This document shows, piece by piece, positions 15,251-15,350 of a stretch of DNA of 64,000 bases. The number at the start of each line of letters is the position of its first letter. Positions within the stretch are counted from its first letter, which is position 1. This DNA is from Escherichia coli (GTDB taxonomy: Bacteria; Pseudomonadota; Gammaproteobacteria; Enterobacterales; Enterobacteriaceae), in NCBI RefSeq assembly GCF_013122565.1, contig NZ_CP053258.1. One strand, 5' to 3'. The notes beneath the pieces are model-generated. The model was not told the DNA's origin and searched no databases. It saw nothing but the letters and a program-made list of their open reading frames with translations. The position numbers were made by a program, and so were the translations under genes.

Positions 15251-15350
15251 GCCGGATGCGGCGTGAACGCCTTATCCAGCCTACAAAATTGTGCAAAATC
15301 AATGGATTGCACAGGTAACGTAGGCCTGATAAGCGTAGCGCATCAGGCAG
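15251..15350. repeat. REP/BIME element (two inverted REP units) between gcd and cueO
   Basis: gccggatgcggcgtgaacgccttatccagcctac and inverted gtaggcctgataagcgtagcgcatcaggc match the E. coli REP consensus. Confidence 0.8.

Follow-up and report, generated by a model that had tools for sequence, protein, structure and literature searches.

The DNA analysed here, a stretch of 64,000 nucleotides (64 kb) referred to below as the window, belongs to an Escherichia-type chromosome and runs in the opposite direction to the K-12 map. Two of its spacers are considered, and in both of them the flanking genes are convergent: the 201 bp between gcd and cueO (locus 1) and the 116 bp between yacG and mutT (locus 2). 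The four gene names are supported by the RefSeq annotation of the matching E. coli flanks, and no repeat features are listed in either spacer in the RefSeq annotation of K-12. A first-pass annotation had placed paired inverted REP units in both spacers, and such units were indeed found near-exactly where it had put them. The genes, the repeats and the associated features are the following.

12804-15212, plus strand: gcd, converging with cueO (open reading frame positions).
15250-15284, plus strand: Y REP, 33/35 to the Y consensus; its last bases, CCTAC, are complementary to the conserved GTAG.
15285-15318: linker of 34 nt (L-type), between the GTAG ends of the Y and Z1 REPs.
15319-15348, minus strand: Z1 REP, in inverted orientation with respect to the Y REP and matching the Z1 consensus at 30/30 positions.
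15373-15394, minus strand: cueO-proximal hairpin, perfect over 9 bp and non-REP, detected as an inverted repeat and by folding; it lies 19 nt after the cueO stop.
15414-17003, minus strand: cueO, converging with gcd (open reading frame positions).
42084-42281, plus strand: yacG, converging with mutT (open reading frame positions).
42300-42337, minus strand: Z2 REP, 36/37 to the Z2 consensus plus a 1-nt insertion in the loop.
42338-42349: short linker of 12 nt, ATCTTGTGCAAA, joining the non-GTAG ends of the Z2 and Y REPs; identical in K-12.
42350-42384, plus strand: Y REP, 32/35 to the Y consensus.
42388-42404, plus strand: second copy of a 17-nt tandem repeat (copies 42371-42387 and 42388-42404, 16/17 identical).
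42398-42787, minus strand: mutT, with its stop codon at 42398-42400, converging with yacG.

The repeats were typed against the E. coli consensus sequences published for the Y, Z1 and Z2 REPs, as quoted by Durrant et al. 2024 (PMC11208160). Both spacers were aligned with these references and the whole 64 kb window was searched with blastn-short. The full-length consensus matches in the window are the four units listed above, with E values between 1e-8 and 1e-12; beyond them, the blastn-short search of the 64 kb revealed no other full REP, the remaining hits being seeds of 9-12 nt. A failure to align with the REP consensus, named beforehand as the ground for rejecting the assignment, is ruled out by these matches (30/30, 33/35, 36/37 and 32/35). 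Of the three changes in the Y REP of locus 2, two compensate each other in the stem (C-G to T-A). The conserved GTAG/CTAC is present at the expected end in 4/4 full units, and all four are extragenic, situated beyond the stop codons of both convergent neighbours. The motif of the REP tail occurs 8 times in the window, against 0.6 expected from shuffling.

Hairpin folding is predicted for all four REPs, at -12.9 to -21.8 kcal/mol (z between -3.2 and -5.9 relative to shuffled sequences). The value is -15.1 kcal/mol (z -3.2) for the Y REP of locus 1, -21.8 kcal/mol (z -5.9) for the Z2 REP and -19.2 kcal/mol (z -5.2) for the Y REP of locus 2, and folding of the whole BIMEs on both strands gives z values of -4.7 to -5.7. 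Both elements are dispersed repeats: in E. coli genomes, the locus 1 query has a median of at least 38 matches and the locus 2 query a median of 9, which rules out a single-copy status.

Several other candidates in the window were examined and discarded. The tail hits with two mismatches at 6816 and 35749 have a non-palindromic context and no partner arm, and the one at 36466 reduces to a 9-nt seed against the consensus. The palindrome at 12049-12069 is an unrelated simple hairpin, gccggatgcaacacatccggc. It follows a TAA codon at 12036-12038, and its first 10 nt match the start of a Y REP. In the two spacers, a promoter scan gave no call.

BIME-1, also named RIP (or RIB) element, is made of a Y REP, an L linker carrying an IHF site and a Z1 REP. 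At locus 1, a short inverted repeat within the 34-nt linker, TGTGCAA/TTGCACA, encloses a sequence of the IHF type: AATCAATGGATTG, at 15297-15309, fits the IHF consensus WATCAANNNNTTR, which is matched 5 times in the window against 1.95 expected, an excess of about 2.5-fold that is weak alone. The Rfam family RF02751, ES036 (CssrF), scored 37.2 bits at 15285-15327 on the plus strand, 0.4 short of its gathering score of 37.6. Spacer and flanks together show 3 differences from K-12 over 241 positions, and the Y REP is identical in the two. From its layout, locus 1 is a BIME-1/RIP-type element. The cueO-proximal hairpin, which was left uncalled by the terminator scan because it has no adjacent U-tract, is kept in every allele aligned, the REP-free alleles included.

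BIME-2 elements consist of alternating Y and Z2 REPs separated by short and long linkers, and usually form tandem units. Judged on the order and orientation of its parts, locus 2 is one BIME-2-type unit followed by a duplicated half REP. The Rfam model RF02564, naRNA4 (CssrE), aligns over its full length (1-77 of 77) with 42304-42381 on the minus strand; the score of 78.4 bits exceeds the gathering score of 59.5, and this match includes the 12-nt linker at 42338-42349.

Other Rfam families were also matched in the window. STnc40 was detected above its gathering score at 42802-42871 on the minus strand (81.7 bits), over the mutT/secA spacer and the first secA codons, and tp2, also above its gathering score, at 30916-31029 on the plus strand (103.4 bits). 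PssrA ("plasmid-encoded Shigella sRNA A") was matched at 48518-48607 on the minus strand (105.5 bits), an odd hit for a family described as plasmid-encoded. It spans the end of the open reading frame 48587-49849 and the start of the open reading frame 47375-48526, which are probably ftsA and ftsZ, from their position and from Pfam matches on related loci.

The duplicated half REP, which was absent from the first-pass description, lies at the mutT end of locus 2. The second copy of the 17-nt repeat is half of a Y REP (CTTATCTGACCTAC, 42388-42401) without its partner arm and, unlike the four extragenic full REPs, it shares bases with mutT: read on the minus strand, the TAG of its GTAG is the stop codon at 42398-42400. 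No sequence covering the query for the duplication junction was found among the 5,426 complete E. coli genomes (0/5,426), and the GTDB species-representative genomes (one per species) and the JGI metagenomes gave 0 matches each. A clean deletion of the four-REP allele of K-12 was considered as the origin of this arrangement and set aside, as it accommodates poorly two extra bases at the junction. Because of these two bases, a 17-nt tandem duplication with one substitution fits the sequence better, neither model being proven.

In every allele examined, the mutT frame ends in REP sequence. MutT has 129 residues ending in KRL in the window and in K-12, the stop codon being the TAG of GTAG. The stem of the Y REP starts 17 nt after this stop in the window versus 0 nt in the K-12 and 05_3471 alleles, and in O157-type alleles the mutT stop lies inside the REP stem. 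In the alleles of O157 AR-0428, KKa019 and MS1679, compared with 42398-42457 of the window, GTAG is changed to GTAT and mutT reads three codons further, to a TAA in the REP stem, giving a MutT of 132 residues ending in KRVYVG. Since the end of mutT is supplied by the REP, changes in the repeat alter both the C-terminus of MutT and the distance from the stop codon to the hairpin. According to the summary of Liang et al. 2015 in PMC12306157, REPs located at 15 nt or less from a stop codon stall terminating ribosomes and lower upstream expression. The spacing of 17 nt falls just past this limit, so that a higher output of MutT is conceivable. That the duplication is a lineage-specific regulatory change which could raise the output of this antimutator is nevertheless, in our opinion, improbable. 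The duplication is the sole unusual detail of the two elements.

Variation between strains was analysed in a set of 5,426 complete E. coli genomes. Over the 12 kb from 36000 to 48000, the best of these genomes is about 99.2% identical to the window, a figure low enough to indicate that the lineage of the window probably lies outside the set. At locus 1, the query (BIME and gene flanks) was covered over at least 80% of its length in 2,740 of the 5,425 matching genomes. Most of the remaining genomes have a REP-free gcd/cueO spacer of 46 bp (as in strain E1) or 77 bp (as in UPEC957C), in which the cueO hairpin is the only element, and a further variant of this spacer carries a shorter linker. As about half of the E. 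coli genomes are devoid of the gcd/cueO BIME, any role that it might have for the host there would be dispensable.

At locus 2, the query region measures 341 bp in the window and either 321-331 bp or 435-440 bp elsewhere, the size classes differing from the window by -20, -17, -10, +94 and +99 bp. In K-12, the 99 extra bp correspond to a second Y-Z2 unit with a 35-nt linker, so that four REPs are present versus two in the window. The four-REP allele was found in about a third of 30 evenly spaced records, which is a rough estimate of its frequency. In the alignments, the 35-nt inner linker of K-12 includes TATCAATGAGTTA, which fits the IHF consensus. The strain-to-strain indels anticipated for these spacers by the first-pass annotation therefore exist at both of them, as presence or absence of the element at gcd/cueO and as two versus four REPs at yacG/mutT, and the comparison that it had proposed revealed, over the 5,426 genomes, insertions as well as copy-number variation.

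IS621 is a member of the IS110 family and a bridge-RNA-guided recombinase, whereas IS1397 belongs to the IS3 family and is specific for REPs. The natural target of IS621 is the 11-nt sequence ATCAGGCCTAC with a CT core (Durrant et al. 2024, PMC11208160). At the two loci, the insertion point of IS621 is this core, next to GTAG. In the window, ATCAGGCCTAC occurs exactly twice, versus 0.02 expected, at 15320-15330 in the Z1 REP and at 42301-42311 in the Z2 REP, and both sites are empty. With a junction query anchored in gcd, IS621 was detected at the Z1 REP of gcd/cueO in 206/5,426 genomes. In strain M8, the insert interrupts the core of this target and measures 1,279 bp, one copy of the core included. 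An earlier junction query for this locus had given 1,251 genomes and was discarded, as similar Y-L flanks at other IS621-bearing BIME-1 loci made it over-count. At the Z2 REP of yacG/mutT, a junction-specific query detected IS621 in 181/5,426 genomes, among which O26:H11 11368; in strain 05_3471 the flanks of the insertion read cgtAG, IS621, AGgcctgat, which corresponds to the CT core. The exact natural target of IS621 is thus present at both loci, and a few per cent of the genomes have IS621 inserted in it.

IS1397 was found in the loop of the same Z2 REP in the group of CFT073 and Nissle 1917, with a 3-bp TGG duplication, and its junction at this REP was present in 100/5,426 genomes. A copy of IS1397 in a REP of CFT073 and the association of this element with REPs were described by Tobes and Pareja (PMC1525189), and the copy that they reported may be the one between yacG and mutT. 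Insertion of IS elements at the two loci, also announced by the first-pass annotation, is thereby confirmed (IS621 in 206 and 181 genomes, IS1397 in 100), these counts referring to genomes and not to independent insertion events.

The gcd/cueO Z1 REP of O155 NWU_3 displays another arrangement, in which only 71 bp of the end of IS621 remain, with an IS3-like fragment and unrelated genes beyond them in place of cueO. By its sequence, this structure is a rearrangement breakpoint situated exactly at the GTAG of the REP.

Taken together, these data make it very probable that the two loci carry common REP/BIME elements of E. coli between convergent genes, a BIME-1/RIP at locus 1 and a BIME-2 with a half REP at locus 2. 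The RNA- and DNA-level roles proposed for them are those that the literature gives to other REPs. Once transcribed, the REP hairpins would form part of the 3' untranslated ends of both mRNAs of a convergent pair, where they could cause partial termination, in part dependent on Rho, and hinder 3'-5' exonucleases; stabilisation of upstream mRNA had also been mentioned in the first-pass annotation. At the DNA level, the linker of locus 1 is a candidate IHF site and the unit of locus 2 a candidate for gyrase binding, BIME-2 units having been reported as gyrase sites (PMC1525189). Convergent genes are the commonest context of REPs (about 60%), and convergent pairs bearing REPs show a higher average expression (10.64898/2026.03.23.713779). 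In the same study, a 2026 preprint, REPs are described as strongly context-dependent terminators and stabilisers and REP325 has measurable terminator and stabiliser activity; no genome-wide difference in half-life was observed for REP-terminated genes (10.64898/2026.03.23.713779). No observation speaks against the identity of the elements. The proposed functions are weakened by this context dependence and unchanged half-life, by the lack of a called intrinsic terminator at either locus, by the many genomes devoid of the gcd/cueO BIME and by the modest excess of the IHF motif. The REP-associated transposase TnpA-REP (RAYT) may have spread and reshaped the elements, together with slippage or recombination involving the repeats. 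TnpA-REP needs GTAG for binding and cleavage (PMC8266576) and, as this motif is kept in the four REPs, all of them remain potential substrates of the protein.

Three other explanations were weighed against this assignment. The palindromes could be terminator hairpins proper to each locus, or inverted repeats due to chance, foreign to any repeat family: they stand where convergent genes end, a place at which terminators would be expected, and unrelated hairpins of that kind do exist in the window (12049-12069 and 15373-15394). The scan, however, called no canonical intrinsic terminator (hairpin with U-tract) on either strand of either locus, and the near-perfect, full-length matches to the Y, Z1 and Z2 consensus sequences and the dozens of copies per genome are hardly compatible with such an origin; consensus alignment and copy number refute this explanation, to which we attach practically no probability. 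A more specific proposal would make locus 2 the gene of an naRNA4-like nucleoid-associated non-coding RNA, condensing the chromosome together with HU. The score of RF02564 at 42304-42381 on the minus strand (78.4 bits for a gathering score of 59.5) agrees with it, and naRNA4 itself is a Z2-Y REP unit of REP325 (PMC4550694). Yet the plus strand too reaches 52.9 bits and, since the Rfam model amounts in essence to a Z2-Y profile, any BIME unit of this kind will match naRNA4. Moreover, in the 2026 preprint, which has Adhya among its authors, REP325/naRNA4 was found to cause no measurable nucleoid compaction, and REP-REP contacts were not observed (10.64898/2026.03.23.713779). An naRNA4-like gene at locus 2 appears very doubtful.

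The third explanation deserves more consideration. Both elements could be purely selfish or neutral, as non-autonomous REPIN-like doublets spread by RAYT/TnpA-REP and deprived of any function for the host at these sites. The REP-free gcd/cueO spacer of about half of the genomes points in this direction, where the cueO hairpin is kept in all the alleles, as do the variation between two and four REPs at yacG/mutT and the conservation in all four REPs of the GTAG used by TnpA-REP for binding and cleavage (PMC8266576). Such an origin is nonetheless compatible with a local effect at the RNA level, and the published terminator and stabiliser activity of REP325, like the higher average expression of REP-bearing convergent pairs (10.64898/2026.03.23.713779), speaks against a complete absence of function. 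We regard a purely passenger status as possible, though clearly the less likely outcome. Ordinary REP/BIME elements endowed with the roles proposed above are therefore preferred. These elements, the binding of IHF and gyrase, the effects on mRNA 3' ends and the targeting by IS621 and IS1397 are already known, so that the present analysis has little weight as a discovery; it is useful as an annotation, in which each unit is typed as Y, Z1 or Z2 and both loci are recorded as polymorphic.

When compared with the systems described so far, locus 1 has the layout of BIME-1/RIP, with a Y REP and an inverted Z1 REP whose GTAG ends are turned toward a 34-nt linker containing WATCAANNNNTTR; no structural difference was noted, the linker of the window being 2 positions away from that of K-12. 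Locus 2 displays the alternating arrangement of BIME-2 as one Z2/12-nt/Y unit and passes the gathering score of naRNA4. It holds one such unit in the window, whereas two are present at the same site in K-12, with the 35-nt inner linker, and the extra 17-nt half-REP duplicate next to mutT was observed in the window alone among the sequences searched. REP325, the BIME-2 from which naRNA4 derives, contains six units (PMC4550694) versus one at locus 2. With respect to the targets of IS621 and IS1397, the Z1 and Z2 REPs of the window carry the exact IS621 target, occupied in other genomes and empty here. In REPIN/RAYT systems, a domesticated transposase, IS200/IS605-like, mobilises the REP doublets. 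The two loci resemble them in their inverted REP pairs, their conserved GTAG and their variation between strains, and from the literature on these systems (PMC8266576) we infer that both would belong to a RAYT-driven system.
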